Positions 24,514 to 52,600 of a stretch of DNA of 64,000 nt are shown piece by piece. The notes under the pieces were generated by a model. That model saw only the letters and a list, made by a program, of their open reading frames with translations. It was not told the DNA's origin and did not search any database. The stretch covers positions 4,136,018 through 4,200,017 of the forward strand of contig OZ316891.1 of the NCBI GenBank assembly GCA_973895155.1. The letters are read 5' to 3'. The translations under genes were made by a program, and so were the position numbers. The stretch comes from Marsupella aquatica (taxonomy: Eukaryota; Plantae; Marchantiophyta). The stretch's first letter is position 1. Every line of letters begins with the position of its first letter.

Positions 24514-24828
24514 AACAATACAAGTGAGGTCTCAATACTAGTCCATTTGACTAGGCGGGTATCCTAGAGTAATTCTTGAAAACTTTTGAAAAGTAACAAT
24601 GAATGCAACAAAGAATGTCAGTGGGACACAATGTAAAGACCATTGTTTTTTTGACCTGGCCAGTTAATACCGTTTTTTTAATAAATATATTTACCATTAT
24701 TACCATTATTACTTTTTGCCTTTTTATCTTGTTCCCTGTAAGCCTCTTTTTGTTCTTTGGGTTGAATTATAGCTCAATCCAAGTAGCTCAAACCCATGTG
24801 TTGCACAAAAGATGTGGTTACAAAAAAT

Positions 24829-25020
24829 GAAGTTGTGTCGCCAAAGATGTCCTTATGTAAAAGATATCATGAAGTAAAATGATGTCATTAAGAATAAAGA
24901 AGTTGTGTCGCCAAAAATGCCGTGAAGTAAAAAGATGTCATTCAGAAAAAGGAAGTTGTGTCGCGAAAGATGTCATGAAGTAAAACACTATCATTATGTA
25001 AAAGATGTCATCAAGTAAAA
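24829..25020. repeat. Degenerate tandem repeat (GAAGTTGTGTCGCCAAAGATGTC / GTAAAAGATGTCAT modules)
   Basis: Modules recur at ~24830, 24900 and 24953. Confidence 0.7.
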
Positions 25021-25540
25021 CGATGTAGGGATGCCATTAATGTGGTTATTGTTCTTGATTGTTGAGATGACACCCCCAAAATGAACCCAAGATGTATTGT
25101 CAAAATGGCAGCCAATACAGTCTTTTCAAGGAAATATGGGTGGAGATTTTCTTTTGGGAGAATAGGCGTTTTCTTAGGGCGACCTAAAAGGTTGTACAAT
25201 TAGGGAAGAGGTAAAGCTAGCAGTAGCAAGTGGTGCTGAGATAAGTGGCTAAGAGACAAATTGAGGACCCACTTCACCTGAACATCACGTGGGTCTTTGA
25301 CTAGAGCTCGTCTCGCTTTGAGAGGAGAAAATTTGATGGACTACTTGTGGGTGCACTTTTAAGATAAATGACTTGAAATATGAATAGACCAAGCCCCAAG
25401 ATGAAGAGATCTCCAAGATAGGTGGCCTAAAACTGGGACAAAATTCCCACAAGCAAAATTTGGGCCCCACTCAATTCCATCTAGGAAGGGTGACACCATA
25501 GAAAGAAAATGCCCCTACTTTTGGTAAAGTGAACTGGAAG

Positions 25541-27297
25541 AAAATGGATGGCACGGAGAACGGGCCGTTTGATGTGTCTCGGACAGGGTTAGAGAGGAGA
25601 GTGGCGGACGGAGTTGAGATCAGTTACAGGGCTCGGGGTAAAAGGAGTGGTTGCCGTATGTAATTCCAAAAGTTTAATCTCACCAGCAGACTAATTTGTC
25701 TGTTCAAAACGATGTGTCACTGGATGATACTTGGTCACTACGTTTACGAATCCTATTCCGGGAAGTGCGACGAACAGTCGTTTTGAGCGACGTTATTCCT
25801 TTGGGTAGTGCCGCTGCTCTGCATTTTATGCTGTGAGATTGGCCTTTCCCATATATTCTGGGTTTGCCTCTGTTTGCTTTCTCATTTTAGTAAGGGAGAG
25901 CATTTTCGAAGTGACCCGCCAATGCGAAGTTTGAATATAAGGTGCATTGTTCCTAATTTCTGGCAAGCAGAATGTGACATTTTGGTAAGATCTGTGGTAA
26001 AGAGAACCCGGCGAAGTTACTTTCCAATCTGGGAGGGAGTATCGAAAATAATTCCCAGTCTAAGAGAGTCGTGCAGATGCATTCTATCACCACTGATCAA
26101 CACGAGGTTGATGTAACAACAATCGCAAACTTCAAAAGAATTGGAAAAGACAAGCAGGAGGAGTCACCGTGCAAACCATACCAATGACGAGTCCCAAGTT
26201 ATCCCACTCCTAGACTGAACACATGAAGCCTGATTTCGAACAATACAGATGTTAGTTAGAAAAAGACACAGATCCTCATTGGCGGATCTTTCTGATGACC
26301 TTATTCCAGTATGTCTCTGACGCTCAGTCAAATTACTCGGTCCCCACCGTCATGAACAAATTTTTCACAAAAAATGGCAGCACATTTATTACACGTACAA
26401 GACGACGCCCAGTCAAATTACTCGGTACCCCACCGTCATGAACTCAGAAAAAATGCCAGCAGATGTATTAAACGTACGAGTACGACGCTCAGTCAGATTA
26501 CTCGGTACCCCACTGTCATGAACAAATTTTTCAGAAAAAATGCCAGCAGATTTATTACACGTACAAGTACGACGCTCAGTCAAATTACTCGGTACCCCAC
26601 CGTCATGAACAATTTTTCAGGAAAAATGCCAGGAGATTTATTACACATACAAGTACTGGGATGAAACTGCAGCCCTTCAGCCAGTGCGTAGGTTTAGGAC
26701 CACCTGAACCAAAAGAAAGAGACTTGGGAATGAACGCCTGGCCTTGGCATTCCTTTACTACGACACAATAATGCGGAAGGAGCTTTCCTGAATATTTAAA
26801 TGACAACTCTGTCCGCTTTAAACAATGAATAATGCCCAAATCTCACTTCGTTCAATCTGATCAACCGCTTGAACTGATATAGATATTTAAGTGATAAGCA
26901 TATCAGAATCAAGAAGATCACTAAGCCTAATGGATGCAAAAAGAACGTTGGTGACAGACAGTCCACAGGCTAAGCATGAGATTGGATAGCGCCAAGTTTA
27001 CCTCCGCTACTTTGTTCAATATCTCCTTCACATTCCAATTGGCAACATTGAGATCGGGTGCAAGCTCGAAACAAAATTGATAGTGAAGCTCAGATTGTGG
27101 TCTGAGGCGCTTTCGGAAGAGTGAGGCATGGATATCAAGCAAAACAAAATTACCTTTTGTCCAATGAATTTTCTCCCAGCAGAGTGGACAAAGTAAATTG
27201 TCATTATAGCAGGTGAACTCTAGAGAATCATTTTCCTATAGCATTCTTACCAACTCAGCATTTTACATTCCTAATTGGTGGAATCTCATGACCTTCA
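25541..27297. pseudogene. Decayed direct duplicate of the ALP1-like/HO1 segment, with the ALP1-like CDS deleted and HO1 exon 2-4 remnants on the minus strand
   Basis: 25541-25632 matches ~36634-36726, then jumps to ~38760 and stays colinear to ~40343. HO1 remnants include HCLKRTELSFKYSGKLL and VKEILNKVAE, with frameshifts and deletions. Confidence 0.9.
26320..26657. repeat. 4 x ~80-87-bp tandem array inside the decayed duplicate
   Basis: GACGC(T/C)CAGTCA(A/G)ATTACTCGGT...AAAAAATGCCAGCAGA units at ~26320, 26404, 26484 and 26571. Single-copy counterpart at ~39440-39530. Confidence 0.9.
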
Positions 27298-27914
27298 GAC
27301 ACAAATTTAGCAAGTGTACAAAATCGTAAGAGTCTGCTTTCAGTGAGTTGTACTCAGGACCTCCCGCTTACTGAACGGGTGCTCGAGCCAATTGAGTTAT
27401 AGAAGCACAAGAGCAATATTGCATAGTCATATAATTAGGGGTCCAATCTATCGGCTACCTTTTATGTAAGTGTACTGATCTTATACAGAAACCACCCACC
27501 AACTCGTGTATCTTGCTTACTTTATGCCATTTGATATTTCAAGCCTTCTTCATTTGCAAACTCACAAATAGTGCTTGTGAGTTGAAAAACCGAGCCACAG
27601 AGAAGCTATTAACAAATGTAATCCTCAATGTGCCATTGATGGGGCTACAGTGATGTGACTGAACGGAGAGACGTAGAAAGTATTTGCGAGTGGGATGGGC
27701 AGTCGGAAATTGTGCCCGCTTATAATAGTTGGCGATAGGATTCGGGAAAATCAATGTCAACGATACAGGGAGTTGGAGTTCTGTAAACCAAGATCTTAGA
27801 CTTCCTGTTCCAAATACATTGCATTGCATTGCATTACTTCCTGTAATACTGGCACCGTAAGCATTGAACTTAGCCTGTCTTTGGGTTCCATAGCTACTGC
27901 CTATAGCGTTCAAA

Positions 27915-30900
27915 TTACTGCGTTATCCTCTGGCTGTACTTCACATTGAATACTCGAATTGAATAATCTGCCCCACAGGATGCTAGCTGAAAAGGTTCAT
28001 TCCCTAAAAGTGCCGATCCATTTACGTGTGATGAATCAGACTTTCGGCAATGTACAGCATTTTCATCGTCAACTGGCATATCCCTCCAAGCTAATCTTTG
28101 AACAGCCGCCACATGGCAATTGAATCTATCAAACTTTTGCAAGCAGGACATGTCAAACTTCCAAGAGTTTTCGTCAGTAAAGGGTGATGATTCAGTTGGA
28201 CCAGTCCCCTTAGCTTCCGCCACATGAGAGATGTCTTTCACACTTCCGTGAAGACTTCCTTCCCATAATTCCAAAGTACCATCTTCCATACCCACAGCCA
28301 GCAGGAGTCCTGGACCCCATGCCAAGGCAGTGACACTACTCTTGAAGACAGGAAGAGATAACACATTCTGAACTTTGACTCCAATTTCAGTATCTCTGAC
28401 AGCCCAAATTTTAACAATCTTGTCCCTTGACCCTGTTGCAAAAAAGCGGTCACAGCAGCTCCAGGAGCAAGTCCAGATAATGCGCTTGTGAGCATCAATC
28501 TTCGTCACTAACTGATACGGAGGTGAGGACCCTGAGTCGTTCTCTGCAAGAACGACAACGCATTTCCACCATTTACAAGATTACATTACAAATCATGCCC
28601 ATCAATGTCCGGATTATTGGACACTAGATAAGGAGGTAAAGAGTCATACTGACTCTACAATTAACAGTCTTTACCATTTCAAGTTTACACCATAGATCAA
28701 ACGAATATTGGGTGACAGCGTTAAGAGAGCATTGTAGTGAACTAAAGATCGCTTTCAATTCCTTCAGCACTAGTACATTTTCCTAATCAAAGGATGGAAT
28801 GTACAGTGCCATATTTATAGCTAACTACAAGATCTTGCTACCAATTATCCACGTTTTGAATTTTCTGTCGCAATCAAGAGGAAATGGGAGGGCCTTAAGT
28901 TAAGTCCTTATGGATAAACATCCTCTAGGAAGCTTACAAGCACTGCTTCAGTTGTAGGTCCCACGTACCTGCTTGCACGCGTTCAAAGACGGATAGATGA
29001 CGATCTCTTGAAACGGACAACAGAAATCTATCATTGTGAGAGAACTCCAACTGGGTCACGGTAAGCGCATGTGCCTTCAGTTGCCCAGCTGGCCTCCAAA
29101 AGTCGACTTGCCACAACCATATTTGAGAAAAGGTTTCTGATTGTGCCTGTACTCCATTCAACAAGTTGAGAACAACAAAACGAGGCTGTCCCTTGGGAGT
29201 TCGAGCGGTTCTTTAATCAACCCAAGATGTTGTCCGTATATCATCACAAAGTAAGTCAACCAACAGTTTCCTATCCAAAATTGAGAAGCCTAAGAAACAG
29301 ACCTCTATGATGAGTTGACATTCAGGAAATACACCACAGATGCAGGAACGAGTGAAATGTCAACTAAACGAGATGCTATGTGGCTGCATTCGTACCTTAC
29401 ACGCAGTTGCAACAAACTTTCCAGCATGATCACAGCACATAGCAAACAGCTCATTGCCATGACCATAGAGCTTGTGTGACTCTGGCCACAGAGTATTTTG
29501 TGCAAGGTGCTCTTCAAATGGAGGCTCTGTCAGGACAGTAGGCACTGCCTCGGGGAATGCACCCATAGTATCCAACCCAGCCTCATCGAGGTCTTTTGTT
29601 ATTACAGACTCCGCCCCAGATAAACCCCTCCCTGCACGTATTGACAGTTCAGAATACTCCCTAACTCTGACGAGAGAAAAAGAACAGGAATATAGCACAT
29701 CAATGTGAAGTGTCAATACTGTAGTTAACGTCACCATCCAGTATAAATCATCCCACCTGATGCATATATTGGCTTCTGCGACAGGCCAAGAGCGGACATA
29801 TTGGCTCCAAGAATATGAACGTCATCTCGGTTGAGTCCATCGCTCTTTCCGCCAGTAGTGAAAGTCAGGGTATCTAGCAAAGCTCCAGGAGCCTCAAACA
29901 CCCTTGCAACCTTCTCTTCGGCTCCGCTAACGTAACGATGATTGCCTGGGCCTCTGACCATTGCCAAACAGTTCAAGTCATGGCCATGCACTTGAGGCCG
30001 CCCAATTTCGTGCCAGGATGTCCTGTCGGAGCTCTGGTCTTCATGGTTCCAATTCCAGCATGCAAATAGTCTGGCTGTCTACAAAGGAAAAGTCGTTTTG
30101 TCAGTGCCATGAGGAAATGAATAATTCATATCAACCAGGGCATCACAAGAAATCCAAGCTTGTCAGAGGGCCATATTCGCTGACACATACTAAAACTAAA
30201 GAAGGGCGTTCCTTTCAGCACCTGATCGTGGCTCACAGAGATTAAAAACTGGCCAGTTTTTGCCCATGCGAAGTCCACAACTGATGCTGCATGGCCCGAT
30301 GGAGTGAGTTGGGGCTGCCAATCTCCAGTTTGCAGATTCAGATTCTTCCAGAGATGGAGAGACCCGCCATATCCATTTGCGAGAATAGCATTACCTTGGG
30401 GACTCCACACCCCACCAAAGAATCCAAGTGCTGATGGTGCAAGTTCTCCAACAGTGACTTCATTTATCCATATTCCTGATGCAGCATCTGGCTTCCATAT
30501 CATCATCGATCTATCCATTGAAGCTGAAAGAACGCACATCGGCTCCTCAGCCCCTGGCTTTCTTTCATGGGCATTGCTGGCCTCCATCACTACATCAGAA
30601 ACACGAGGCTTCCATCTCACTGAATACACCCAATCCTCATGGCCCAATAGAAGAGACTCCATCGATACTTGCCAAATATCCTCTCCAGCTTTGAAAATTG
30701 GTCCATCTATGAATGTCCTTAGGCTCATTTCCAGCGTTTCTTCCCCCTCACTCTGGGCAGCTCGACGAGAGATCTTCCATATCCGAATCGATTTATCTTG
30801 GGAGGAACTGGCAAGAAAAACAGTGCCATTTGCATTACTGTGTGAGGCCGAAGAAAAGTCGACGGCACGGATCCAATCTTGATGACCCTTCACCTGGCAC

Positions 30901-33397
30901 GCAAGAGAGAACTGCATCCGAATGGCACCATTAAGGATGACAAAATGACAGAAAACTCTTTAATGTCCTAATCTTTAGACAAGAGACAAGCTAGGAATGA
31001 TCGATTATAAACAGTATACATAGAAAATCAAAGAGCTAGGTATGGACTAGACCACAGGCTCCGTCTGAAGATACTCGGAGAAGTATGGTTGGGTTGATGC
31101 ATCTCCCCTTGCATTCATGAAAAATCAATAATTTTGGGACTCGATTTCATTTCAATGATGCCTAACATGTACTTCGGGGTGGCTAGGAGGACATGTTCAC
31201 GAAACCAGTCCTAGGGACACTGTTAGATCCCTAGGGAAGAAAACAACCAAACACAACCAACTGAGAACAATGCTATGAGATAATCTGTAGTTTGCACAAT
31301 CTGTTTGAGTTTGGGAATTCATACCTCTCCCGTCAATAACCCCACATAGAAGTGAACATGGTTGTCAAGGCCACCCAAAGCTAGTAAGAATGTCTGCTGG
31401 CTGCCAGGAAGCGCAGTCAGTGACGTAGCAACCATGGGTCTTGAGCCCACAGGTATTGATTGTAGGAGGGAAATACTGCAGTCACCTGACTCGCAAACAA
31501 ACAATATTGTTTCAACTTAACGACTAGGCCCTTCGCGAATCAGAAACTAGGACACAAATCTCCGTACTCCAAATTGCCCAAATCATCTTAACAGTGAAAC
31601 CTTTATGTCAATCAGTCAACCTAATCCATTCACGACCTAATTACCCTTAGATCAGCTCCAATTGCACAGAACGGAAAGTGCAAAAGCTAAGTTGCAACTG
31701 GCTACTAGCCTAATCGTGTTAGAGGTAAGAGAGTACGTCAAAAAAGGTTGGAAATTCCTACCCTATCACCAAAGTAATGGGGAAAAAACACGTAAGCCTC
31801 ACCATTACCTTTTGTAGGCAAAGAGACATTCCAAATTCGAACACATGAATCTGAAGAAGTTGAAGATAACAGAGCCAGTGATGGTGAAACCATGTAGGCA
31901 GCTATGCACGTAACGGTTCTCTCATGTGCTTTTGGAAGTTGAGCTGCCATCCTCCACTGAAACAAAGCAGTAAGACAGGTGCTGAGCAACGACATGCGAA
32001 TTATTGGTCAAGATTCCCAACTAGAGAAATCAACCAAATCAACAATCTAGCACCTAAACCAACTGGCTTTGCTCAGTTGGCCAGAGGATGAGCCTAGAAC
32101 CGAGAGGTCCCAGGTTCAATCCTCCCTCCACACATAAGGGGTGTGGAGGGTATGTGTGTGTGTGTGTGTGTGGGTGGGGTGTAGTGGTGGGAGTATTGAT
32201 TATCTCCTCAGCCCTGGTTGCCCACTTTGGGTTCTGGTTTAATCCTCTCTTCCTCCTGGTCTGGGTCCCTGTCGATTCCCTGGGTATTGTCCCCTTGTGG
32301 CTGCCCTACATAGAAATGCATGCTCCCAAAGCAGGACGTCTATCCTCAGTTGGATGGGCCTGCTTTCGGTTTTCAAGGCAAAAAAAAACAATCTAGCACC
32401 TACTACATTGTACAGAGTATGTGACATGTAGAGGAGCCGGAAAACTTATTGAGAGTGTCTTGACTGCAAGCTTACATTGGCGGCTACTTTAACTGGATTG
32501 GGATTCGCTAGTCAATTCACTTCTTCCAGGTTATTCCGGGAGGAGCAATTGAACAAGAACACTCTGCAGAACAGTACCTTACTCTCGACCGATGAATATG
32601 CCCACAAAATGATGGCTCCATCTGCACTCCCAGAGAGTAAGAAGTGCTCGCTGGTCGACTCATCTGCATTGCCCAGCATCAGTTCCAGAAAACCGATGCG
32701 CTTGTCAACGAATAGAAGTCGTAAATTTGAAAGAACATATTTTCAACGGTACAAGCTGTAAACTCCATATATCCAAGGCAGCAAAGTAACACTACAAACG
32801 GAGGGAATTAATAGATAGAACAAAAAGAAAAAGTACCTGGATAAACTAGATTACTGACAGGGAGCCACAGGACACAGTTAACAAGGTCCTTATGGCCTGG
32901 AAGGGTCACCAAAATTCTGCTTTCCTGAGGTCCAGTTCCAGTTTTATGACAGCTATTAATTGAACTCCAACTTTGCCGACTATTGTGATATACACAAAAA
33001 TAAATGAAGCTTATGCAGAAGGGTAAGGTAGCTTCAGAATCAGAAAAACCTAAACCCTAAACCCTAAACCCTAAACCTCGAAACGTTCCTTCAAACACGG
33101 AAACGTATCACAGCAGGTGACACTTCAAAGCAGTCGAGCACACAATTGACGTACCTGAGGGGAAAAAATTGCCACAGTGTTGTGAGCTCCAAAAGCGACC
33201 AAATTGCAAGGACCCCATGAGACAGCACCGACAACCCTATTGCATCCAATCGCGATGAACGCCCTTTCTACTTCAACAGACACCTCAGCCAACGCTCCAA
33301 ATACTGCCTGCCTCTCCATGTGATCATGCCCTTGGTCGCCCTCCAAAATCATGCCTTCGCCCTCGTTTCTGAACAGCAAAGCCGTGTCCTGCTGCAT
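27915..33397 (-). CDS. ELP2: Elongator complex protein 2 (WD40), ~10 exons, with a chimeric N-terminus derived from the ALP1-like gene
   Basis: ELP2-type motifs FIAIGCNR, GHQDWIRAVDF, LLLGHEDWVYSVRW, LSASMDRSMMIW, ALGFFGG, HGHDLNC, YVSGAEEKVARVF, ANMSALGLSQKP, TLWPESHKLYGHGNE, AHKRIIW. GT-AG introns (e.g. exon 1 ends 33155; exon 2 32924-32837). Start uncertain: in-frame ATGs at 33397, 33352 and 33319 all lie in the duplicated segment. Confidence 0.93.
32057..32386 (+). mobile_element. tRNA-derived SINE, copy 2, antisense within an ELP2 intron
   Basis: Same body as copy 1 with a longer (GT)n tract; A-box-like TTGCTCAGTTGG, B-box GGTTCAATCC, poly(A); 16-bp TSD AACAATCTAGCACCTA (32041-32056, 32387-32402). 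Confidence 0.9.
33046..33077. repeat. Short interstitial plant telomeric (CCCTAAA)n tract / telo-box cluster in ELP2 intron 1
   Basis: AAACCTAAACCCTAAACCCTAAACCCTAAACC. Confidence 0.8.
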
Positions 33398-33869
33398 TGA
33401 TTCATTGATGACAGAAAGCCCCAGCTTCCGTCATTCTCAGACCTTGTCTCTCGTTCATGGAATCCAAATTGCTCTGCCCCAGAAATCCCTTCCAAAAGGG
33501 AATGGGAATAAGATGCTTCTCTCTCAACCATACCCTCTCTCAAGCCAAGATTACCACCACCACGACTGAACTTTACTGGCGAGCGTTAAGATATGCTCGA
33601 TCATATCTGAGGTCCGGATGATGCTCCTGGTGCTGCTGACGGAGATGATCATTTTGATGAATTGATCTCGCCTCTGTTTCATTGTGCATCACACCAGAAT
33701 TGTCGCTTCCATACTTGCCTTGTAATTGATCTCCACCCCGTTCCCCACTCTCCTCTCTATCCCTGTCCGGAGCCACATCAAACGGCCCGTCCTCCGTGTC
33801 ATCCATTCTCTTCCAAATCTCCTGTCCCTCCTCTGCCTTCCCCCTCACAAATCCGGCACTAATATTCCA
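33286..33869 (-). repeat. Inverted copy of the ALP1-like 5' region (36574-37156) forming the 5' end of ELP2
   Basis: Reverse complement is nearly identical to 36574-37156, with scattered substitutions and two small indels. The ORF track shows the same peptides on both (MVEREASYSHSLLEG, MQQDTALLFRNEGEG). Confidence 0.95.
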
Positions 33870-36800
33870 CACCTCAATTAGTGCGACCAAAAGTGTGACT
33901 TCTTGTGAATTGTAATTTGTGTGACATATAAACTAATGTGAGACAAAAAAATGTAAAGGGCTACCCAATTAGTGTGACTAACACTAATTGCAGTGAAGAG
34001 TGTAGTCAACATATTATGCACAGAAAAAATTACGGACTACTAAATTCATAATACACAAGCTTTTTGATAATAGACCCCCCAGAGAGTCACAGTCTAGAGG
34101 CTTCACTCTAGAAACCTAGAATTGAACTCTAGCTTCTCATCAAGATTTGTAATAGATAACTTTTTTGCCATAAAGATTGGATATATGTCATGACCATAAG
34201 TCACTATAGAGGCAGTGAAACAAAAACAAAAACTAAACTTTACACAACCCATCATTTGCAACTTTATAACTTGGAGTTGCCCTATTAATGACCATTGATG
34301 CTTTTGCCAGAGTTGTTTTTAGTATCATCTCCAAACATTGAACTCTAGCCTATGGTTTAAAGCATTTTCTCCAATTCCACCTAAAGTTGCACCTAAAATT
34401 GATGTCCTTGTTTGTCTCTTGATTGGTTTCACTCATCAGAATTTTCAGAGTGGGTGGGAACACTATCCTTGTTTATTTCTTCACTGGTTTAACTAATCAG
34501 GACTTTCAGAGATCTTGGGAACACTATCATTGTCTGTATCCTTGTTTATCTCTTGATTGGTTTCACTCATCAAGACTTCTAGAAAGGGTGAGAATGAACA
34601 GATATAGCAAGATGATCTTGGGCTTTCCAAGTCGAGCTGCAAATGACAAGGACCCCTCAATCCCCCTTTTATGACATGCTTTGGTCTCCCACCACTTAAA
34701 CGGCCACTAGCCATATAAAAGGGGGAAGTGTCCAAGACTTGTCCTTTTTCACTTTCCTCTCATTCTTCTCCTCCAGTTCCATATTGCTCCACAAATTCAG
34801 GAAATGATACTGTTTATGGTGAAACCTGGTGGACCAGGTTTTTGTCATGGCTAGTGGTGGTTCAAGTGGCAAGGGGCCCTTTCCTAGCATAAGTCCGGCT
34901 AGAGACATTGTGGTATCAGCTAAAGCCCAAACCCTCTTAGCACAATAGATTCCTTTGCAGAATAGAAAACATTTATGCACCTTGCTTATCCCACCCTAGA
35001 TATTCATGTTATGCCCTTGGTGCCATCAAGACATATGGGTGTAGGGCAAGCACATACAATTGCTCAGACAATTTGTGCTATATCTGGGGCTTGAATGGTA
35101 AACAATATCAATTAACAAATACTTGTGTTTGCATCTTGTTGAAAACACCACTGTTCTTTGTTTTGACTAGAAGTGGTGATGTGGGTGCACTTGGTGATTC
35201 TGGAAAAGAAATCCATGGGGTTTGAAACTAAAACTTATTTTGGGACGCATAATCATCAAGTCACGGGTCCCAAGCTCCCATGGACCACCAAAATATGGTC
35301 CACCGGAGCATTGTGTACAACATGGTGGTTCATTATGGCCTCAAACTCAAAATTTTCCTATGCTTCTCATTTGTAAACGATAGTTGTAGTCTTCACAAAT
35401 TATTTTATTTTGTCTCAAAAATTGAACTATGAATGGAGACAATTTTCCTGAGGATTTCATATGAGTGTGTTTGATACTTGTGTGCATTTGAAACCGGTAA
35501 ATAATGTTATCTTTGGGTTTAGGGTTTGTGTGTATTTGAAATAGATTTGAGATTGTTAAATTCAAGCACTACTTAGTGCACTGTAAGGTAAAACACTCAT
35601 TGAGGGTCAGTTTAGAGAATTTTGTGTATAGAGAACGGGATAGAGAACAATAGGGACTTGAAGGTTGGTAAGCTATCAATGATAGACACAAAATAATTAT
35701 GCTAGGAAGATAATTGCAAGGTTCAACATGAGTGATAGCAAGTGAGTAATAAGGGAGTGTCACAAATGCTCACACTACTAAGGGCTAGGTTCCATGGGGC
35801 ACATGTGTGTGAGCATGTTTGAGCCAATAAGTTCACAACTTTTCCGGGGAGTGAGGAGTGTATAAATACGGTAATAGGATTTTCCCTCACATTGGGGTGC
35901 CTTGGATAGTGACACTTGAAGTGCATTTTCATTGGCTCTAAAGTCAAAACTCATACATTTAAAATATTGTGTACACCTTGGCATAGGGTGTATTTGGGCC
36001 CCAGGGGTGTGGGGTGATTGTTACTCCCTGCCCCTGGCCCATGGAACCCTGCCCTAATAATAGATACCTACAGAGCACAAAATTCCATCGGGAGAAAATC
36101 GACACCAATGAATTGGAAACGATGAAGGATGGCCGCTTCAAGAGCAAAGAAACAGAACTGGTAGATTTGGACTCAGCAAAGAGCACGGCATGGAGTCGGA
36201 ATGACAATTGCAATGCAGGGCTCACTTCTTCCAATAGAACTGTGCTTGCCACTCTACAAAGTACCCGAACACACATAGATTTGGACTGATTCTTCTTTGC
36301 GAGAGGAGCTTCTGACTAACACCACCGGCAAAGATGGGTTCACTCCAATTCTCTTAATTGACCGGCAAAGATGAATTCTCTCCAGTTCTCCGATTTGAGC
36401 AAGTCGTCGAAGTCTTGGACTTCATGGGCCCCAATTCGTAGACTCATGGAGTGAGATTTCATCACTTTAAAGATTTTTTTTTCTGGATTAGGTTATTAGA
36501 AAGACCCGCCAGTTGTGTGCAACAGGACTAGTCAATTCCTTAATATCAAATTGATCGTGGATTGATTATGCTCTGGAATATTAGGGCCGGATTTGTGAGG
36601 GGGAAGGCAGAGGAGGGACAGGAGATTTGGAAGAGAATGGATGACACGGAGGACGGGCCGTTTGATGTGGCTCCGGACAGGGATAGAGAGGAGTGTGGGG
36701 GACGGGGTGGAGATCAATTACAAGGCAAGTATGGAAGCGACAATTCTGGTGTTGCACAATGAAACAGAGGCGAGATCAATTCATCAAAATGATCATCTCC

Positions 36801-36909
36801 GTCAGCAGCACCAGGAGCATCATCCGGACCTCAGATATGATCGAGCATATCTTAACGCTCCCCAGTAAAGTTAAGTCGCGGTGGTGGTAATCTTGGCTTG
36901 AGAGAGGGT

Positions 36910-38445
36910 ATGGTTGAGAGAGAAGCATCTTATTCCCATTCCCTTTTGGAAGGGACTTCTGGGGCAGAGCAATTTGGATTCCATGAACGTGAGACAAGGT
37001 CTGAGAATGACGGAAAGCTGGGGCTTTCTGTCATTAATGAATCAATGCAGCAGGACACGGCTTTGCTGTTCAGAAACGAGGGCGAAGGCATGATTTTGGA
37101 GGGTGAGCAAAGACATGATCACATGGGGAGGCAGGCAGTATTTGGAGCGTTGGCTGCCGCTGCGCTGGCCATCAATGTGGCCCTGCAATCCATTTCGGGA
37201 GTAGGGAGCGTTGCCTTGAATCCCACCACTGCCGACTCTTATTTAGAACACAGGAGGTTTAGAAAAAGGAAGCGGAAGAATGATGATGAAACTGTCTTCA
37301 TTCCTGCCGTTCTCAGCACATTTGCAGATGCTGAGGCCATGGCCTCCTTCTATGTCACTGACTCATCTCCCAAGAAAGACCACCCCTTCTTGTTCGATGA
37401 CTATGACTGGTTTCTAAAACCCAGATCCAGGAGGTGGTGGAGAAAACTATTTCGAGTCTCAAAGTCAACTTTCGATTACATCTGCCAGCTTGTGAAGCCG
37501 GACATTGAGTCTGACACCCCTGCCTCTTTCCAAGGGATCGAGGGAAGACTAATCACTGTAGAGAAGCAGGTGGCTATTGCGCTGAGAAGGCTGGCATCTG
37601 GAGACTCTTTATCCATCCTGGGGGATTTCTTCGGAGTGGGAGAGTCCACCGTTTCCAAAGTGATCTGGAAGTTTGTCAATTCCATGGAGAAGAGGGCAAG
37701 ACATCACATGCAATGGCCAGAAGGTGCAGAAATGGAGAGAGTGAAGACTGGATTCGAGGTTGACCATGGTTTGCCGAATTGCTGTGGAGTGATCGACTTA
37801 ACCCACATCCTCATGGAGCTGCCAGGAACCGACGCCTCCATGGCTTGGGTCGACAGGGAGCAGAATTACAGCATGCTCGTGCAAATTGTTGTGGATATGG
37901 ACATGAAGGTAAGAGACTTGTTCACCGGTTGGCCGGGAAGGATAACAGACTCACGTCTATTCCGAAACTCTGGATTCTTTGCAGTCTGTGAAAGTGGGGA
38001 TAGGTTGAGTGGTGCATCTAGAACGGTGCAGGGGATTGAAGTCCGGGAGTATATTATTGGGGACTCTGGTTATCCACTGCTGCCGTGGCTCATCAACCCA
38101 TACACTGCAACGGCGTCATCTCCCAGTAGGGACACATTCAACACCAAGCATGCTTCAACGAAAACCGTGGTGGAGGATGCTTTGGGGCGGTTGAAAGGAG
38201 CCTGGAAGATTTTGCACAAGGTGTCGTGGCGTCCAGATATCAGGAAGCTGCCCAAAATTGTTCTCGTGTGCTGCTTGCTGCATAACATCCTCATTGAGGC
38301 CGGAGAGGAGATGGAGGAGGGAGTGGCCCTGGTTGGCCACCATGACGAAGGCTACAGGCAACAGTGGTGTCTCTCTGCGCAACCAGAAGGGCACCTCATC
38401 AGAGAAGTATTAGCAGGGCATATTTTTGCCAGCGATCAACGTTGA
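36910..38445 (+). CDS. Harbinger/PIF transposase-derived nuclease, ALP1-like (HARBI1 / DDE_Tnp_4 family), intronless
   Basis: Motifs FRVSKSTFDYIC, VEKQVAIALRRLASG, CCGVIDLTHI, TGWPG, IGDSGYPLLPWL, LGRLKGAWKIL, WRPD.RKLP.IVLVCCLLHN, GHHD.GY match the ALP1 clade as I recall it. First ATG at 36910 (track ORF opens at TTG 36898). No TIRs seen. Confidence 0.9.
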   Translation: MVEREASYSHSLLEGTSGAEQFGFHERETRSENDGKLGLSVINESMQQDTALLFRNEGEGMILEGEQRHDHMGRQAVFGALAAAALAINVALQSISGVGSVALNPTTADSYLEHRRFRKRKRKNDDETVFIPAVLSTFADAEAMASFYVTDSSPKKDHPFLFDDYDWFLKPRSRRWWRKLFRVSKSTFDYICQLVKPDIESDTPASFQGIEGRLITVEKQVAIALRRLASGDSLSILGDFFGVGESTVSKVIWKFVNSMEKRARHHMQWPEGAEMERVKTGFEVDHGLPNCCGVIDLTHILMELPGTDASMAWVDREQNYSMLVQIVVDMDMKVRDLFTGWPGRITDSRLFRNSGFFAVCESGDRLSGASRTVQGIEVREYIIGDSGYPLLPWLINPYTATASSPSRDTFNTKHASTKTVVEDALGRLKGAWKILHKVSWRPDIRKLPKIVLVCCLLHNILIEAGEEMEEGVALVGHHDEGYRQQWCLSAQPEGHLIREVLAGHIFASDQR

Positions 38446-39630
38446 TGTTCCTGTGTTGTGAAGGAGCTGCTGTTGCTCGAAAACTCTTTTAATGGGCTGA
38501 CCACCAGCAATTTGGTCAAGGTATTGTAAGTTATATGGACTATGCTCTTGCCCTTCTGTGCTCAGATTTGGACATAACTGCAGAGAAACGCGAATCATTG
38601 TCAAATTGCAGGCCTGGGTTGTTACGTCTGCAACAAGTATATCATGCAAACACTACAGTTGTGTCCTACTTGTTAGAGGAGAACGTCCATCACTAAACAC
38701 AGCAGTTAAGCCAATGTACAGATTTATCTCCGACTGCTGGGTACTGCCTCCTTAATGAACTCGGGGTAAAAGGAGAGCTTTACGTATGTACATCGAATGT
38801 TTAATCTTACCAGCAGACCCATTTGTCTGTTCAGAACGATGTGTCACTGGATGAGATTTGGTCTCAATGTTTACGAATCCTGTTTTGGAAAGTGTGTAAT
38901 AAGAACAATCATTTTGAGTGATTCTATTCCTTTGGGCAGTGCTGCTGCTGTGCCTTTATGCTGTGAGATTGGCCACCCCATACATCTGGACTTTTGCCTC
39001 TGTTCGCCTTCTCGTTTTAGTACGGGAGAGCATTTTCGAAGTGAGCCTATACTGCAACGTTTGAAATTTAAGGTTCAGTGTTTCCGGCAAGCAGAATGTT
39101 GTAGTAAGACTTTTTTGTCTGATCAGTGATAAATTGAATCCGGGCGAAGTTACTTTCAATCTGGCAGCGGTATCGAAGATAATTCCCAGCCTCCGAGGGT
39201 CATGCAGATGCATTCTATTTACCACTGATCAACACGAGATTCATGTAACAAGAATAGCATACTTCAAAAGAATTGAAAAAGGTCAACAGGAGAACTCACC
39301 ATATAAAACCATTTCAATGGGAAGGCCAAAGCTATCCCCTTCCAGACTGAACAAGTAAGGTCTGATTTCGAGCTTTACAAAGGTTAGAAAAAGACAGATC
39401 CAAACCCGGGATGATTATGTAACCATTCCAATAGGTCTCTGATGCTGAGTAGAATAACTCAGAGCCCTACTATGTATGATCGATTTTTTAAGAAAAAATG
39501 CCAGCAGATCTTTACATGTACAACTACTGCGATAACACTGCAGCCCTTCAGCTAGTGCGTAGAGGTTTAGGACCACCTGAACCAAAAGAATGAAACTTGG
39601 ATATGTACGTCTTGTCTTGGCTTTCCTCTA

Positions 39631-41748: not shown

Positions 41749-43907
41749 TGGCTGGCTAGCTGGCTGGTAACCTCTCTAGGGAATTGCTTCAATCAAAATC
41801 TGCCAGTAAATTGCCTGAAATCAGATTCCGGTACTGAGCCTACCGGATGGTGCAGAGAGGGGCTAAAAATTGCTCGCGACAGGATTGCCAAGAGACAAAC
41901 AGGGGAAATTAAGCACTGGACTAGACACTGCTGCTGCAAAATCAGTCAGATCAATCCCATCCAATTTCTCCACAAGGCCAACAGATTCACCGGAGAGGGG
42001 GACAGCTTCCGAATTTAAAAGAGGCGACCACAGAGATGGTGGTTCTAGAGAGCTGCAGGCAACCTACATGCGCAACAGGACAGTCTTTGAAAGGAGACGA
42101 GAGCTCACAAAATTCTATAGATAAATCAAAAGCCCGTGCTGCCTCGTCTTGCAGTCTCGCTCGCTTCCTGCAGACACAGCAGTAAGTTGCCGTAATCACC
42201 TACCAACTCGACGAGCAAGGAAGCAGGCAAAATACCAGCACCGCAAGTTTTGAGGCCCCTTTGCTTCCACAAGCTCTCAATCAATGCACTAGGGAAGCTT
42301 CTCAGGCTTCTGCTACAGTAGTCTAGTACAAGTGCAGTGGAGCCTAAAACAGACGGAGTGATTCGTTGCCAAGTTGCCTTGAAGAGAAGGAATCTCAGCA
42401 GTGGCTCCGCCTTCCAAAGCCCGAAAATGAACGAATCAATGAATTCATTTCCCACACACTACGGTCCCGTGTCGTGGTGGGCAATCACGTCTCCCCCAAC
42501 CACATATTCCTACTAACGACAAGCTATAATCCCCAACAATCCCAAACAGCAGAACCTAGAACCCACAGTCCCACACTATCCGAACTGCACCGTCACTAGG
42601 GTTTTCGGGCTCCGCTAAAACCGCTGACTGCGGAACTCCTCCGAACATCCGGCTATGGCGGCAAAGCACCATAAGGCATAAGCATTCTCCTACAGGTATC
42701 GTGGAAGTTTCACTGCGTTTTGATTCAACATGGATGCGTCTGAACTACACATCCTGGACTGCCCCATGAGCTCTTCTCACCGCCCATCTCCAATCCACAA
42801 ATCAATCTCCAGAGAGATATGAGTACTGCGGAATTGTAATTGTTAGCGTGGGTCCAAACTGGGCAAAGTACAGTAGGGCCGCAATGACCAAAACAGGGTA
42901 ACCCTGGTTAAAGAAGGCAAGGACTGCGTTGTCCCGAAAATCTCGGGGACTGCAAACGATATGATTCTGGGTTTGGATTTCTGAGAATAGTTTGGCCCTA
43001 TCTGTGGTCCAAGCACTACTGCACTCGCTCACTCACTGACCAACCAGCCTTCCCTGCTTGGAACACGCCTAGCTCCTCGTCGGCCTTCCATCGCTTTGAG
43101 CCAGAGAGAACGTTGGTGTGAGGTGTTTGGCCACTGTTGCTCACCCTGACCCTGGTGTAGTTCTTCTCAGAATTTTGCCCTGAGTCATTTCTGGATCGAA
43201 TGAATTGTCGGCGTATGGAATTGAAGCTAGATTGAGCGCTTTGCGGTAAGTGTAGGAGAAGGAATTTCGAATTTAGAGCTTCTAGAATTGGAGTTGATGT
43301 AACCCATTGGAGTCCCCAATTCTTTCGCTCTTGAGTGAACGATGGAAGTGTCTACTCACTTAGGACTACGAAACAATGCTTTCATGCTGAGAGTTCTGAC
43401 GTTCAGATAAAGAAGGTGGATGCACTTACTCGAAAATGTGTATTCGAAGAGAGTGAGAATAGTTAAACTGAGAGCATTTTCTGTCACGGTATAAATAGCA
43501 GCATCTCTGATTGTGTGTCGAGGTTACAGCTCGGAAGTGACTTTGACATTGACTTTTCTCAAGTTTTATGTCCTGATCTACCGCTGCTGACAAGTTATAT
43601 AATTCTAGCTGTGCTTACTATTATCCCTCTAGAACAATGGAACTGTTCTGTTGATGATGGCACCATCGTATCACACTTCACAGTCGGTACAATTAGGTTC
43701 GCATGTGTGCAAGAAGAGCTTTCTCGAAACAAGATCTAAAGCAAATGAGGTGGGGAACAACGAGCAGCAGTCAATTCTGAGAATGAGGAAGATTCTGATA
43801 ATGAACGTTGGTTCGCGTCCTTCTTATCGATCATCGATCATTTCGGTTACCATACATTGAATTTTAAGTTACCATCGCAGGTCATTACCTCCTACGCATG
43901 ATGTTTC

Positions 43908-44540
43908 CGGCCTTAGAAGGCGGAGCCACTGTGGCGATCTCTTCTCTTGTTCTAGGCTCTACTGTACTGAACTACTGTATCTGAAGGCTGAGGAGCTCGC
44001 GTCGTGCTTTGATTGAGACCTTGTGGAAGCAAAGGGGCCTCAAAACTTGCCGTGTTGTCATGTTGCCTGCTTGCTTGGGTCGTCGAGTTCTCGGTCATTA
44101 TGAATCCCATATATTCGTCTCAAATGAATGCCTCGGTAGATCACGCAACTCACTGTTGTGTCCGCAGGAAGCGAGCGAGACTCTCAAGAGAATAGACAGG
44201 TGGGGCCTTTAATTTGTTCAAAGAATTTTGCGAGGTCTCATCTCCTTTCACTGGCTTTCCAGTTGCTCGCATTCAGTTTGCCTCTCTAGAGCCACCCTCT
44301 CTTTTGGATAGCCTGTTTTAATCCTTGTCTCGGAAACTGTCCTCCTCTCCGGTGAATTTGTTGGCTGTGTGGAGAAATTTTCATGGGTTTGATTGACTGA
44401 TTTCGCACCAGCAGTTTCTAGTCCAGTGCTTAATTTACCCTGTCTATCTGTCGGGGGAGTCCTGTCGAGTAATTCTTATAACTCTGCATCATCACGTAGC
44501 CTCTTTGCTGGAATCTGGTTGTTGGCAATCTGAGTGCTGG
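43908..44540 (+). repeat. Third, CDS-less copy of the HO1/Der shared 5' leader
   Basis: Aligns with the reverse complement of ~41800-42420 (GAAGGCGGAGCCACTG..TTGTGGAAGCAAAGGGGCCTCAAAACTTGC..GCAGGAAGCGAGCGAGACT) and with 49300-49585. Similarity stops shortly before the position of the ATG. Confidence 0.85.
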
Positions 44541-46453: not shown

Positions 46454-49400
46454 TGTTGGATACCCATCATTTCCTCCGGCAGGGAGCTTAGCTTGTATTT
46501 TGCTAAGTATGCAGATGAGCAAGCAATAAAGTTGTTTTCAGGTGTGCCCATGTTAACCCTTCACTCCCTTTTCAGAGCAAGCACTTAGTATTCCACAGTC
46601 TGCCACAGAAGATTTGATTCACTCTGGGTTTTACGTCCTCTCTAGGCCGAATACCCACATGTTTCACTGCAGCAGTAAACCACATGGTTCACCGAAAATA
46701 GTTATTTCGTGTCGTGGATTAAGGGACCACCATCCCAATGTAATGAGTCACTCATTTCATTACCTGTCTGTCAATGAGCTCTGTATGAATTTGTGATTCT
46801 CTATGCATCATGCCAGTCAGGAGATGGCTCGAGGATGGACGTTGGAAATGCTGGACAGCAAGTTCAGAGCTATATATAGCCGCTTTATGGGGATGATGGT
46901 TTTTGAATTTATCACATCTTGTGTAGTGCACTGTCAAGCATCGTTTAGTGAAATCTGAATGACCTGTGGTTAGAAAGAGATCCCAGGGATTTAGTCACTA
47001 TGGTTGTGGCGATGTCAGACAACCAAATATCATGAAGTCAGTGTCGTTTAGGAGTATAACATGTTCCGAGTTATTCCCGATGTTCTTTGCACACATTCCT
47101 TTTTGTACTACTTTGTCGCAGTTAAAGCGGATTCCAGACAATAACATAGAAAACTCTCCATTTGCACGATCACAATCAACTAATCTATAGATGCTCTGCC
47201 TTGAGTTTTAAAAGACCGCTGACGTCTTGATCACAACAAAAGCGCGTCAGACTAGTTTTGAATACTCTCCATTTGCACTATTTTCCGTAAGGCACACAAA
47301 TCATAAATGCTTTCAAGTTGATCTGCAAGGAGTGATGATTTTATCAGCAACATGAATGAATTTCAGAAGATCCAGCTCGTGGAACTTGCCATGGCTTGCT
47401 ACGGCACATCGGTGTACAGCTTCAACACCATCCAGTTTCTTCAAATGTACATTCCACCAATCGAAGAAAATACTTGATGAGAGAGAATAATGGCAGATGC
47501 GACGACACGTGAAAAACTATCAGACAAGCTGGAAAGCCTTTGAGAGTTCTTGAAATCTACATTCCACCAATCAAAGTAAAAAAAAATTAAGATCGGTGGC
47601 AGAACGAATGATGGCAGATGTGAACAAACCTGGAAAATCGAGAGCGCAAATCTATACTGTCAGTGATATGACCGAAGATCTCTGAATTTGAATGAAATTT
47701 ATACCTTAATTAGGGAGACCCATACAATTCCGAGGGATAAACATGGAATCACAATTTTGCTAGATTCAGTAAAATTTGATAGGAATGATGACAGATTCTG
47801 AATTCATAAAAGTTGCCGGCACTTCTAGGACAACGCTATAGGGCAGGCCTGTCTTCACACTTTTGGACGATGTGGCCCAAATGTAACCTGTTAACTGTAT
47901 GCTAAATTACCCTTGCTAAGATCACTTCTTGTTCCTAAAATATATTGAGATCTGTATTGGGCTAAACCAGTTTCCAAATCAACACAGCCAGAGTTCAAAT
48001 AGTAAATTCAATGTGTCACACATTTAAATGGCATTATATGCTACATCTCAAACCCGTGCACTCAAGACATCTGTTGCCAAGCGCAAGTTTGCCATGTGCT
48101 GACCCGGCCATGATAGCTTAGACTTTTTTGACCACCATGGTCTTAACATACGTATTATATATATGGAAGCACCTAGCCCTCTTATAGAATACTAGTCATT
48201 TGGATGCCATTCTACTGCATTTGGTTCACAATCTTTGTAGGTACATCAATATAGTGTAAATTATTTTGGCCTTCAACTCGTTGTCCTTGCACAATGTTAA
48301 ATAAAACCAAACATGTATTATATTCCTTCCCAGCATCAAAGTATACATAAGGAAAGGATACACAAATCAATCCCACTACACTTTGGTTCAACATAACGGT
48401 GGCTGTGGCTGCATTAGGGGATCTCAAACCTGAAGTCCTGCAAAAAAAATCCTTGGCTCAAAAGCACGAGTTATGGACTTTGGTCACAAGTGGTAGGAAC
48501 AAGCTTGAGTGAGTCCTCCACTTTACTTCTCAGAGAACCTGCGTGACCGCCAAAACCCAGTGGTTTGAGCACCCAACTATGCCATGAAGACTAACCCATG
48601 AGTTCTACTCACTGCCCATTGCCAATCTATAAATCAATGAACTGTGGCATTCTCCACAACTGGCAGCGTCAGGGTCAAACTGGGTCATAGTATAGTAAAA
48701 TGGTGTAGTTGCAATCGGGACTACCAATGTGTAAGCCCCCCCTTCCCCCCCCCTTTGCGGCGGCAGCCTGGCCTGGGGGTCATGAGATTTTGTAACCTGC
48801 CTAGAGGGTTAACCAAGTTCAGGCACAATTTTCAGATCATAAGTAAACTTACACTCTGGGCTTATGCTGGTTATAATTCATGGCCACTAGGGTTTAGAGT
48901 TTAACCACCAAACAACCCCCACCCACCCCCCCCCCCCAATCCCCCGGGGCGGGCTCACTGCTCTTGGGGATCCCCTTGGGGCCATGGATTACCCTACACC
49001 ATAACCCTGGTGAATAGGGCAATTGTGGGTTAAGGATAGCCAATGGCAATAGGAACTCGGTCACAAGTCAATATTAACCTGTATACGAAATGGAGGATGG
49101 GGAGGGGTTCATCATTAATTCTATTTGAGAAGAAAAGCACCTTAGTAATGTAATATACGGTAATTGGAGGACAAATTAGTAAAAAGCTGTCTCTGGGATA
49201 CTTTTGGCCCTCTCTGTACAGTAGACTCAATCACTGACCAACCAGCCCTCCCGAGTGTGTCTGTCTTGTCTCTATGTCTCTCTTTGCTCTCCCATCGCAA
49301 TCTCCTTTCACTGGCTGTCCTGTGGGCTGTGGCTTCACCTCTCCCTAGAGCCACCTTCTCTCTGGAACCTGTTTTGAATCTTCTTTCGAAAAGCTGTCCA

Positions 49401-49652
49401 TGCTCTCTCTTGTGATTTGTTGGCCCTGTGAAGAAATTTTGGTGGGATTGATAGACTGATTTCGCACTAGCAATGTGTAGTGCAGCGCTTGATTTCCCAT
49501 GTCTGGGGAATCCTGTCGAGTGATTCTTATCGACTCTCGGCATCATCAGGTAGCCTCTTTGCTGGAATGTGAGTGTTGGCAATCCACTGGTGGATGTTGA
49601 TCGAAGCAATTCCTTAGTGAGGTGACCAGCCAGCCAGCCAGCCAGCCAGCCA

Positions 49653-52600
49653 ATGGCGCTCTCCTTAGGGGAGCTTGTGCAGCAGAAGGCGGTGGGACTG
49701 GGATTTAGTGGGCTTGGCAATTTTACCGCATTCCGGGGAGTGAGGGCCTCCTTGAAACCCTCTGCTCTGTGGAGCAATTCTCGGCAAAGAATTTCGTCTG
49801 TGGGGGCTTTACGGGTGCAGCAAAGCCATGGCTGGGCAGATTTTGGAATCCATGAGAACTCTAGAACTGGACTTGGGGGCTCTTCGGTGGGTGTGGCTGT
49901 CCGGGCAGGGAAAGGGACTGAGGAAGATGCTGACGATGATGATGATGAACCCCTATCGAAAGAGATGCTAGAGCAGGAGGCAGCTCGTGTTGCGCAACAG
50001 TACGCCCGATCTGTGGAGGAAGAGCTTCGCCAGGGTGAGCCTCATGACTTTTTATGTTCGTTTGTCGATCGTGCATTCTTTTATTGGAGATTGTACGCCG
50101 ATTCCTTGGAGTATCCTTACCTGATGAAGGTTTTAATATGTTTCTCGCTAAAATAAATGAATCATTCGCCAGAGGATGAGGCGGAAGCTTCGGGCGGAAA
50201 GAGGAAGAAGAGAGGACGGAAGGGAAGCTGGGACGAGGGAAGCGAACTGGACGTTCCAGATCATCTCCTTCCTAAAGTGGCCATTGTTGGGAGGCCAAAT
50301 GTAGGAAAATCAGCTTTGTTCAACCGTCTGGCCGGGGTGAGTTTCATATCGCATACCTGGGTGGACCTCGTAATCAAGTTTTTTGTCATGTGTGTGGTTT
50401 CGACAGTAAGCTTGCAATTTCCACTCTTTCACTGATCCTTAGTGGTACAGGGTGATGTTGCAATTGTACATGATGAACCAGGTGTGACTCGCGATCGTCT
50501 ATACACTCGAGCTTTTTGGGGTGTGCATGAGTTTCTGTTGGTCGATACTGGGGGCGTTTTGACAGTCCCTTCATCTTCGAATATGGGTTCAGATGCACTG
50601 GCTATCACCAGAGGTGGTGGCTCAGATGCAGTGACTCAAGCATTGAAAGAGGCAGCAGCTGCTGGCCTGCCGTCTTTGATTGAGAAACAAGCAGCTGCTG
50701 CTGTGGAGGATGCTTCTTCTGTCATCTTTGTGGTTGACGGCCAGGTAAATTGCTTGCCTGTTGATATCTCACTGCTTTGTAACGCTGTAATCGTGACACT
50801 GTATTTAGTCTGGCGCTCTTGAGCAGCGGATGCTTTTGTTGAGTGTCTTTTTCTGGTCTTCTTAGAGTTCTGAGTTTGCTGCATTCGGATCAGTTTTCTC
50901 TCCCTCTCCAGGCGTAAGAATTCTTTGGTTCGATTTTAGTCGAAACTAGAAGACGAAGGCTCATCATACCTGCTATTCATAGATTCAGAGCTTCTAACCG
51001 CGTTTGAATTTAACAGGCTGGTCCCAGTGCAGCAGATACTGATATTGCGAATTGGTTGAGGAGGAAACACTCTAACAAAAGGATAACGCTAGCAGTAAAC
51101 AAGTGTGAATCACCAACCAAAGGGCGAATCCAAGCAGCCGAGTTCTGGGGTTTGGGGTGAGCAGGCAGTCTGTTGCAATTGTTTTGTGTATACGTTCAGC
51201 TGCCTTCTTCAGTTTTTTTTAATTGAAAGCTTAGAAATTGATTGTTTTCTGAAATGTACTCAAGATCTAATGTATTTCCAGGATACTGGAAAATAAAAAC
51301 ACTTTTCTTCTTGCTGTAGACCCCATGCCCTACATAGCTTTGTTTATCTTCACCGATGTTTTTTCCAGAAGAAATATCACTCGTTCCTTTTTAGCAATTT
51401 CTATGAAAGGGTAATACGTGAAAGCAAAAGAAGTAATTGAAACAAGGAAAAAAGGCTAGGGGAAAGATTATGTTGAAATCTGATGGCAAAGATTTTTGCC
51501 GAGCAAAACAAGGCAGCTTTTGGATACATGTTGAACTTACTTTTCTTCCCAGTAATTTTAAAGTTTTCACTCAGGGTCTTCCGTGTACTAAAGACAATAT
51601 CCTACATGTATCTTGGGATCAGGTTTACTCCTATTGCCGTCTCTGCAATCTCTGGCACTGGAACTGGAGACTTGCTGGACAGTGTCTGCTTGGAGCTCCA
51701 AACACCGAAGGTATAAAGGAGGTGGCTGTTTGGTTTGACGAAAAGAAGTTTGGGTTATTGCTGTGTGTAGTCCTGAATTTTGAGTATCTTAGGATAGGTA
51801 TTCCAGTTATTTATGGGTTTTCTTGTAAGTGAAGGTGCCAGACGATTTCAAGGAGGAAGAACGGCCTCTGGGTATCGCCATTGTTGGTCGACCAAATGTT
51901 GGAAAAAGTAGCATATTAAATTCGTTGGTCGGTGAGGATAGGACCATTGTCAGTCCAATAAGTGGAACTACACGAGATGCTATCGATGCTGATTTTACTG
52001 GCCCCGATGGACAGGTTGGTGGTATCCCCTGCCTAGCAATACATTATTGTACAGAATCAAGATTTGTGAGGAACCTATGCAAGTCACAGGTCTATCTCAA
52101 AGCTACATTCAAGTCATACAACGAAATAGGTCATAGTACTAGGTGTTCAATCCGCAAGGTCCCAGGAAAGCAGAGAACATATATCTTAGTTTTCATTCAG
52201 GTCCTTGAAGTTTCAAATTTAGGGTTTGTCTCATGTACGAGGATCTCAGAGCAAGTAAATTATGGCATTTGCAGATGTACCGTCTTATAGACACAGCTGG
52301 AATTCGGCGGAGAACAGCTGTTGCATCTGCTGGTAGCAGATCAGAGTATCTTTCTATTAATAGGGCATTTAGGGCTATACGACGCTCTGATGTAGTGGCG
52401 CTTGTAATTGATGCCATGCAGTGTGTAACAGAGCAGGTAAATTGGATTTTCTCATTTTGTCATCTATGATACATATGTTTGGTATTGTTGTTGTCAATTG
52501 TCAGGGATAGAGTATATCGTTCAGACGGTCTGATGTCACCTAGAGTATGAATGGTATGGTCTCGATTCTCAATCTCGAACTTCGAGACTCAGAAGAGTGC

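Follow-up and report, generated by a model that had tools for sequence, protein, structure and literature searches.

We analyzed a stretch of 64,000 nucleotides (nt) from the liverwort Marsupella aquatica (assembly GCA_973895155.1, contig OZ316891.1, positions 4,136,018 to 4,200,017 of the forward strand). This whole stretch is referred to as the window, and positions are counted from its first letter. The window contains a gene for ELP2 and, beside it, a gene for an ALP1-like nuclease, which is a domesticated Harbinger transposase. We found that ELP2 opens with an inverted copy of the ALP1-like 5' end, which now provides its leader and first codons. From 25535 onward, the gene order is an old duplicate, ELP2 (minus strand), a spacer of 2.7 kilobases (kb), the ALP1-like gene (plus), a heme oxygenase gene (minus), a small gene (plus), and the EngA/Der gene (plus).

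Table 1 Coordinates of genes, copied segments, and predicted features in the ELP2 cluster.
Feature	Position	Strand	Remarks
Older decayed duplicate	25535..27297	+	98 nt of ALP1-like 5' end, its 3' flank, and heme oxygenase 3' remnants; abuts ELP2 3' flank
ELP2	27915..33319	-	10 exons, 902 amino acids (aa) counted from ATG 33319; further in-frame ATGs 33352 and 33397
Fusion junction	33280..33292	-	About residue 7 of native ELP2, from comparison with the Calypogeia fissa ELP2 N-terminus
Inverted copy of ALP1-like 5' end (ELP2 arm)	33286..33869	-	Now ELP2 leader and first codons; 97.1% over 585 columns
Predicted intron, 346 nt	33369..33714	-	Would bring ancestral ATG 33806 in frame with ELP2
Spacer, 2.7 kb	33870..36573		High-copy repeats toward ELP2, single-copy DNA beside the ALP1-like gene
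Donor arm	36574..37156	+	63 nt upstream plus ~173 former ALP1-like codons in three frames
Predicted twin intron, 345 nt	36729..37073	+	Would likewise serve ALP1-like; both indels inside
ALP1-like domesticated Harbinger nuclease gene	36910..38445	+	Present open reading frame of 511 aa
Heme oxygenase leader and transit-peptide codons	41485..42097	-	Second-swap donor; aligns to C. fissa P0237
Heme oxygenase	start 41748	-	
Third inverted copy, heme oxygenase upstream DNA	43904..44529	+	82% of ungapped columns; ends 551 nt before the small gene
Small gene	start 45080	+	Three exons
Inverted heme oxygenase 5' copy	49301..49911	+	Opens EngA/Der in frame; 83% of ungapped columns
EngA/Der GTPase gene	start 49653	+	

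The closest match to the ELP2 protein is from Calypogeia fissa (87%). The closest matches to the ALP1-like protein are from Marchantia and Riccia (75-80%, among 120 listed of 301 matches), and no leafy-liverwort ALP1-like protein is among those 120. A metagenome scan with the ELP2 query found one contig only, L001, from an unrelated lineage and at 54%, while the scan with the ALP1-like query found no relative.

The inverted arm and the fusion junction

The two arms form a near-identical inverted pair, as a sequence-only reading of the window had claimed (self-BLAST, E=0.0). The arms differ in 17 columns, of which 14 are substitutions; the remainder belong to two indels on the ELP2 side, an insertion of 2 nt and a deletion of 1 nt. 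The homology stops at TTGGCTG, where the frame continues from AVFGALA through EVSVEVERAFIAIGCNR into ELP2 exon 1, which confirms the in-frame fusion proposed from the sequence. The arm maps to the N-terminus of the ALP1-like protein and the remainder maps to ELP2, so that two unrelated genes are joined in one chimeric gene. The ELP2 N-termini of C. fissa, Marchantia, Riccia, and Physcomitrium carry no arm sequence, and the fusion is therefore derived.

We then compared the arm with proteins of other bryophytes. The arm sequence is present on the ALP1-like proteins of Marchantia, Riccia, and, for its last part, Physcomitrium, and not on their ELP2, which bears out the ALP1-like gene as the donor. 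Marchantia Mp6g10730 and both Riccia proteins start with MDD and have QAVFGALA after 150-190 residues, and the start methionine of the Physcomitrium ALP1-like protein is the same methionine as that of MERQ in the window. The FGALA motif was found in 5 of the 120 listed ALP1-like matches; these are the five best and all belong to one bryophyte clade. It was absent from the first 60 residues in 59 of 59 ELP2 matches read by eye. As also noted in the sequence-only reading, an older decayed copy (25535-25632, 88% to both arms) adjoins copied ALP1-like 3' flank. In the assembly, the 5' swap is genuine, and it is settled that the sequence went from the ALP1-like gene to ELP2.

The composition of the arm was found to differ in part from the earlier description as an upstream region plus ~82 codons. 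The last ~82 codons do lie in the present ALP1-like reading frame. Only 63 nt precede the ancestral ATG (36637), and the remainder is former coding sequence. The arm aligns to Mp6g10730 in three successive frames (residues 1-20, 16-65, and 93-188). Of the 583 donor bases, 520 therefore once coded for the ALP1-like protein, and both arms share two frameshifts in this part. Of 1000 shuffles, 9 reached the score of the middle piece (16-65) with Marchantia, 12 with R. sorocarpa, and 597 with R. fluitans. The first frameshift is also present in the old copy at 25535-25632. In the window (36637-36866), the long N-terminal extension of liverwort ALP1-like proteins is thus interrupted by two frameshifts, with a sum of -3. 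The Marchantia ALP1-like records P0001, P0239, and P0240 also differ in this N-terminal region, by absent blocks of 32 and 39 residues, reflecting either gene-prediction artefacts or splicing within the exon.

The donor has several features of a domesticated Harbinger nuclease gene. It matches Pfam DDE_Tnp_4 (E=3e-30), keeps the D, D, and E motifs, and is single copy (depth 17.6 in sequencing run X1). It groups with Marchantia and Riccia with support 99 in a quick tree of 28 rows hand-picked from ~130, a set that contains no active transposase. We found no flanking pair of terminal inverted repeats around the gene in the window, using a Harbinger end motif. In PMC4671723, non-angiosperm ALP1 homologues are reported to keep the D-D-E motifs. 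The donor resembles the nucleases described there in being single-copy, conserved in liverworts, and intact in D-D-E; unlike them, it belongs to a clade of bryophyte sequences that is separate from the vascular-plant matches.

On the ELP2 side, the gene retains no start codon of its own, as had been read from the sequence. The proposed native start MAEV, with ATG changed to TTG by the recombination, is unsupported. Both C. fissa ELP2 copies read MSAMGGAEASVEVER, the C. fissa protein starting with MSAMGGAE, and the window ELP2 reads GALAEVSVEVER. From this comparison, GG and not M probably preceded AE in the native gene, and about six native residues would have been lost. The microhomology is likely only GCTG or GGCTG (4-5 nt), shorter than the proposed TGGCTG, as judged from C. 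fissa codons.

State of ELP2 and its possible translation starts

Beyond the junction, the ELP2 gene was found to be intact. The model has no internal stops, 9 of 9 introns are GT-AG, and 768 of 884 residues (86.9%) are identical to the C. fissa protein (P0121). The contig covering the body (26581-32101) has a depth of 15.8 in X1, compared with 14.4-18.6 for other unique contigs. A search for a second copy had been suggested as a check, and no other full copy was found by depth in this run. By this measure, ELP2 is single-copy.

The residues lost from ELP2 are predicted to be disordered. In the AlphaFold model of C. fissa ELP2, the predicted local distance difference test score is <50 at residues 1-6 and the first strand spans 10-19. 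Similarity to solved ELP2 sets in at residue 13. Three in-frame ATGs would give a foreign N-terminal extension of 10, 21, or 36 aa, in agreement with the earlier estimate. Among 66 plant ELP2s examined, 59 have 10-57 residues ahead of GCNR, and the other 7 have no start or motif. The window ELP2 would have 24-50, so that a tail of 10-36 foreign residues is within the plant range. Together, these features suggest that the chimera is likely a functional, working copy. The modelled tail would be a neutral disordered extension, and any biological effect would fall on ELP2 expression.

Transcription would start in or just outside the arm. We predict, by a slight preference, that translation begins at ATG 33397, 33352, or 33319, adding 10-36 foreign residues. 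A second possibility, to which we give clearly less weight, is that removal of the predicted 346-nt intron allows a start at the ancestral ATG (33806). This form would carry 57 foreign residues (71 before GCNR) and exceeds the plant range. The predicted intron is the top pair under one small splice matrix (12 training introns), and it is among the in-frame pairs, which number 21 of 396 in the ELP2 arm and 60 of 424 in the ALP1-like arm. It drops to rank 2-3 after retraining with 11 introns, its score was reached by 119 of 400 shuffles, and its composition is exon-like. In the main frame, the arms also differ more often at synonymous sites (6 of 64 sites compared with 5 of 227, p=0.017). This suggests that the predicted-intron stretch is still coding in at least one arm, contrary to splicing, and we keep splice rescue as a minority reading. 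The upstream 285 nt of the arms differ at only 3 sites, fewer than the synonymous sites (p=0.002; small numbers), which may reflect either promoter constraint or gene conversion.

Two repeats were observed in the introns of ELP2. Telomere-like AAACCCT repeats lie in intron 1 (33045-33076), 80 nt from exon 1, and could be either a telo-box or a healing scar. A high-copy element in intron 3 (32057-32391) resembles a short interspersed nuclear element by eye and has a 92.5% copy 8 kb off, at 24191-24511. A scan for tRNA genes with ARAGORN found 0 genes.

Origin of the chimera

We examined the locus in four sequencing runs. We observed no difference between X1 and the window, and this run may itself be the source of the assembly. 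The contig evidence covers 32 of 11,838 pieces and 40 of 702 variant rows. Spacer depth in X1 is ~900-1000 in the repeats compared with 16-18 in unique sequence, the latter including contigs 35046-35958 and 35956-36615. The unique contigs of X1 break off at 36615 and begin again at 37074, in both cases exactly 30 nt past the closest base that tells the arms apart. The ELP2-side bases are on a contig of raised depth. Therefore, both arm versions are present in the X1 reads.

Second alleles were found at 33175, 33176, and 33209 in 4 of 4 runs and at 27556 in 3 of 4 runs. The X1 depth is about double at 33209 and 27556 and single over the body. The contigs thus hint at a second, ~97% identical copy of ELP2 exon 1 (33145-33240) and of part of the 3' flank (27556) elsewhere, with no second body. 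Equal depths at 27556 and 33175 had suggested one joined contig; this was dropped, as the distances to the contig ends fit two separate bubbles.

In the three genera compared, ELP2 appears unlinked to the ALP1-like gene or to heme oxygenase. In Marchantia, their locus names (Mp8g01670 and Mp6g10730) indicate that they are unlinked, and in Riccia fluitans they are on different contigs. In C. fissa, the ELP2 copies and the heme oxygenase copies are on four different contigs. These positions suggest that ELP2 likely moved to its present site.

We consider it probable that ELP2 is an intact chimera whose leader and first codons were copied in inverted orientation from the ALP1-like 5' end, likely during break repair, and that it is likely a working copy. 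In this scenario, a DNA break would have occurred beside the repeat-rich spacer, and fold-back synthesis of 583 nt would have been templated by the ALP1-like gene. A template switch at the 4-5 nt microhomology would have led into ELP2 exon 1 at its old locus, and ~6 kb of ELP2 would then have been copied. At the old locus, the body of ELP2 would later have been lost, and what persists there would be the exon-1 and 3'-flank copies at which the contigs hint. We saw no transposon ends or TAA/TTA duplication at either arm end, and therefore the transposon origin of the donor looks incidental. No target-site duplication was found at the ELP2 site.

Several observations weigh against this scenario. 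Among the 32 pieces, none bridges the ELP2-side junction or links the junction to exon 2, and contigs break at the telomere-like repeats of intron 1. The second exon-1 copy is read from 3 variant rows among the 40. In the divergent run X5, the second exon-1 alleles are present, yet a 1.5-kb contig at single-copy depth crosses the ALP1-side arm (35695-37165). This pattern, which is weak and at low depth, fits badly with the arm and the ELP2 copy arising together. The duplicate on the 3' side of ELP2 (73-88%) is far older than the arm (97%), so that a single event could account for both sides only if the arms had been homogenised. The ALP1-like gene, not ELP2, could also be the newcomer. Finally, the first in-frame ATG in the arm comes after 12 ATGs that are out of frame or run into a stop, and an upstream reading frame of 60 aa overlaps two of the three in-frame starts. 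This upstream frame was created from the present ALP1-like start by the 1-nt deletion at 33427. Use of an in-frame ATG would need a late transcription start, scanning past the upstream ATGs, or ribosome restart.

The alternative that survives best is that ELP2 was already head-to-head with the ALP1-like gene, and that a local fold-back duplication or a staggered-break inversion of the spacer replaced its 5' end in place. Inverted copies around a short spacer are the shape expected of a staggered break, as described in PMC7487137, and the presence of the older duplicate beside the 3' end of ELP2 suggests that ELP2 could have arrived before the arm. However, an inversion predicts the native leader at the far end of the spacer, where a low-power peptide search found none (best score 21 compared with 32 for noise elsewhere). 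X5 is also collinear over 35695-37165, and the second exon-1 copy is left unexplained. We regard a resident ELP2 as rather unlikely, though it deserves more weight than the alternatives below.

A different concern is the assembly itself. The arm could be fused to a stray exon-1 fragment and mis-joined to the ELP2 body, with the real ELP2 keeping its native start. The ~97% second exon-1 copy in 4 of 4 runs would supply such a fragment, and no listed contig connects the junction with exon 2. The X1 contigs on either side are nevertheless identical to the window, the duplicated exon piece of ~100 nt is short for such an error if the assembly was made from long reads, and a second, older swap of like design is present in the window. 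We therefore consider a mis-join improbable.

Poor translation of ELP2 is, by our estimate, unlikely in general, and the stronger proposal that the real chimera is barely translated and heading for loss in this lineage is less probable even than a mis-join. The many upstream ATGs in the leader are in line with this proposal, as is the 33427 deletion, which severed ELP2 from the ATG opening the present ALP1-like frame. The coding sequence (2.7 kb) and every splice site are intact despite the arms differing at 6 of 64 synonymous sites, and no other full ELP2 is present by depth; both argue against this proposal. The reverse direction, with the shared sequence native to ELP2 and captured by the ALP1-like gene, is excluded because bryophyte ALP1-like proteins carry the arm motif while ELP2 matches do not, nothing was found in its favor, and we assign it a negligible probability.

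A second swap in the cluster and related systems

A plastid EngA/Der gene lies 16 kb from ELP2. Its front, including an 86-codon transit peptide, was found to be copied in inverted orientation from the heme oxygenase gene, with the frame intact. Across 86 codons of the two copies, nonsynonymous divergence (dN) is 0.12 and synonymous divergence (dS) is 0.27 (dN/dS ~0.45). The sole protein match of the first EngA exon is C. fissa heme oxygenase; later exons match TIGR03594, and the G1 motif follows in exon 2. The donor is identified by Pfam Heme_oxygenase in a later exon (E=1e-4, slightly below the curated cut-off). Our search returned 0 matches to a native EngA N-terminus, and therefore we infer that the heme oxygenase 5' end replaced it. 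This swap is older than that of ELP2.

Upstream DNA of heme oxygenase also recurs, as a third inverted copy before the small gene at 45080. This gene may resemble KGD4/MRPS36, although Pfam gave no support. The older duplicate on the other side of ELP2 matches 36628-36726 and 38760-40343 at 73-88%. Within it, 25632-26400 matches the ALP1-like 3' flank (38760-39523) at 77%, followed by heme oxygenase 3' pieces up to 27297. Tandem arrays were also observed in the window, at 6500-7260, 8400-8900, 24800-25040, and 26317-26656, with units of ~17-18, 85-90, and 112 nt.

A broader and more tentative proposal, which we think doubtful as a whole, is that the 25-kb cluster is a landing pad. ELP2, EngA/Der, and the small mitochondrial-type gene would have come without their 5' ends at different times. 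They would have been switched on by fold-back copies of their neighbors' fronts, with promoter, start codon, and transit peptide, while the originals decayed. Dead transposase coding sequence would have become an intron common to ELP2 and the ALP1-like gene.

We compared the chimera with known rearrangements. The movement of the Ghd7 ortholog Bradi3g10010 has been modelled by double-strand-break repair with filler DNA (PMC3503983). There, and probably in the ELP2 case too, a single-copy gene is at a non-syntenic site with traces of break repair at its ends. Bradi3g10010 moved whole, whereas ELP2 would have come without a start and taken the 5' end of a neighbor by inverted copy. At staggered inversion breakpoints in Drosophila (PMC7487137), the donor is likewise kept whole and a chimeric product is possible; in contrast, the low-power search found no displaced ELP2 leader at the other spacer end, and the 'inverted' segment would be just 2.7 kb. 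At the junctions of composite insertions in maize, there is either microhomology of 3-19 bp or filler that was templated locally (bioRxiv 10.1101/2020.08.10.245175; PMC3014980). The maize p1/p2 chimeras (bioRxiv 10.1101/2020.08.10.245175) also place regulatory DNA of one gene on another. They are paralogs rearranged by Ac/Ds ends, whereas the two genes of the ELP2 case are unrelated, their junction bears no transposon ends, and the ELP2 copy is apparently the sole one.

The swap from heme oxygenase to EngA has a parallel of another kind. Rice rps11 reportedly recruited an existing organelle targeting peptide by duplication, and here too a ready transit peptide and leader were supplied. EngA, however, is a long-established nuclear gene, so that the peptide would have been replaced rather than first supplied.

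In the literature searched, we found no precedent for an ALP1-like gene as the donor of a 5' end and no report of an ELP2 or ALP1-like fusion in liverworts. The ELP2 case belongs to a known kind, the chimeric gene formed by 5' capture. It is notable because it concerns the sole full ELP2 copy observed and because the design occurs more than once in this cluster.

For Elongator biochemistry, the finding adds little, as the ELP2 fold is untouched. If true, it is a natural swap of promoter and start on the sole copy of a tRNA-modification gene conserved across eukaryotes, observed at a stage when the arms are still 97% identical. The plant is haploid-dominant, and a defective copy could not hide in it. 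It would show a route by which genes survive movement without their own promoters. The repeat of the design in EngA, transit peptide included, makes this route testable across liverwort genomes.

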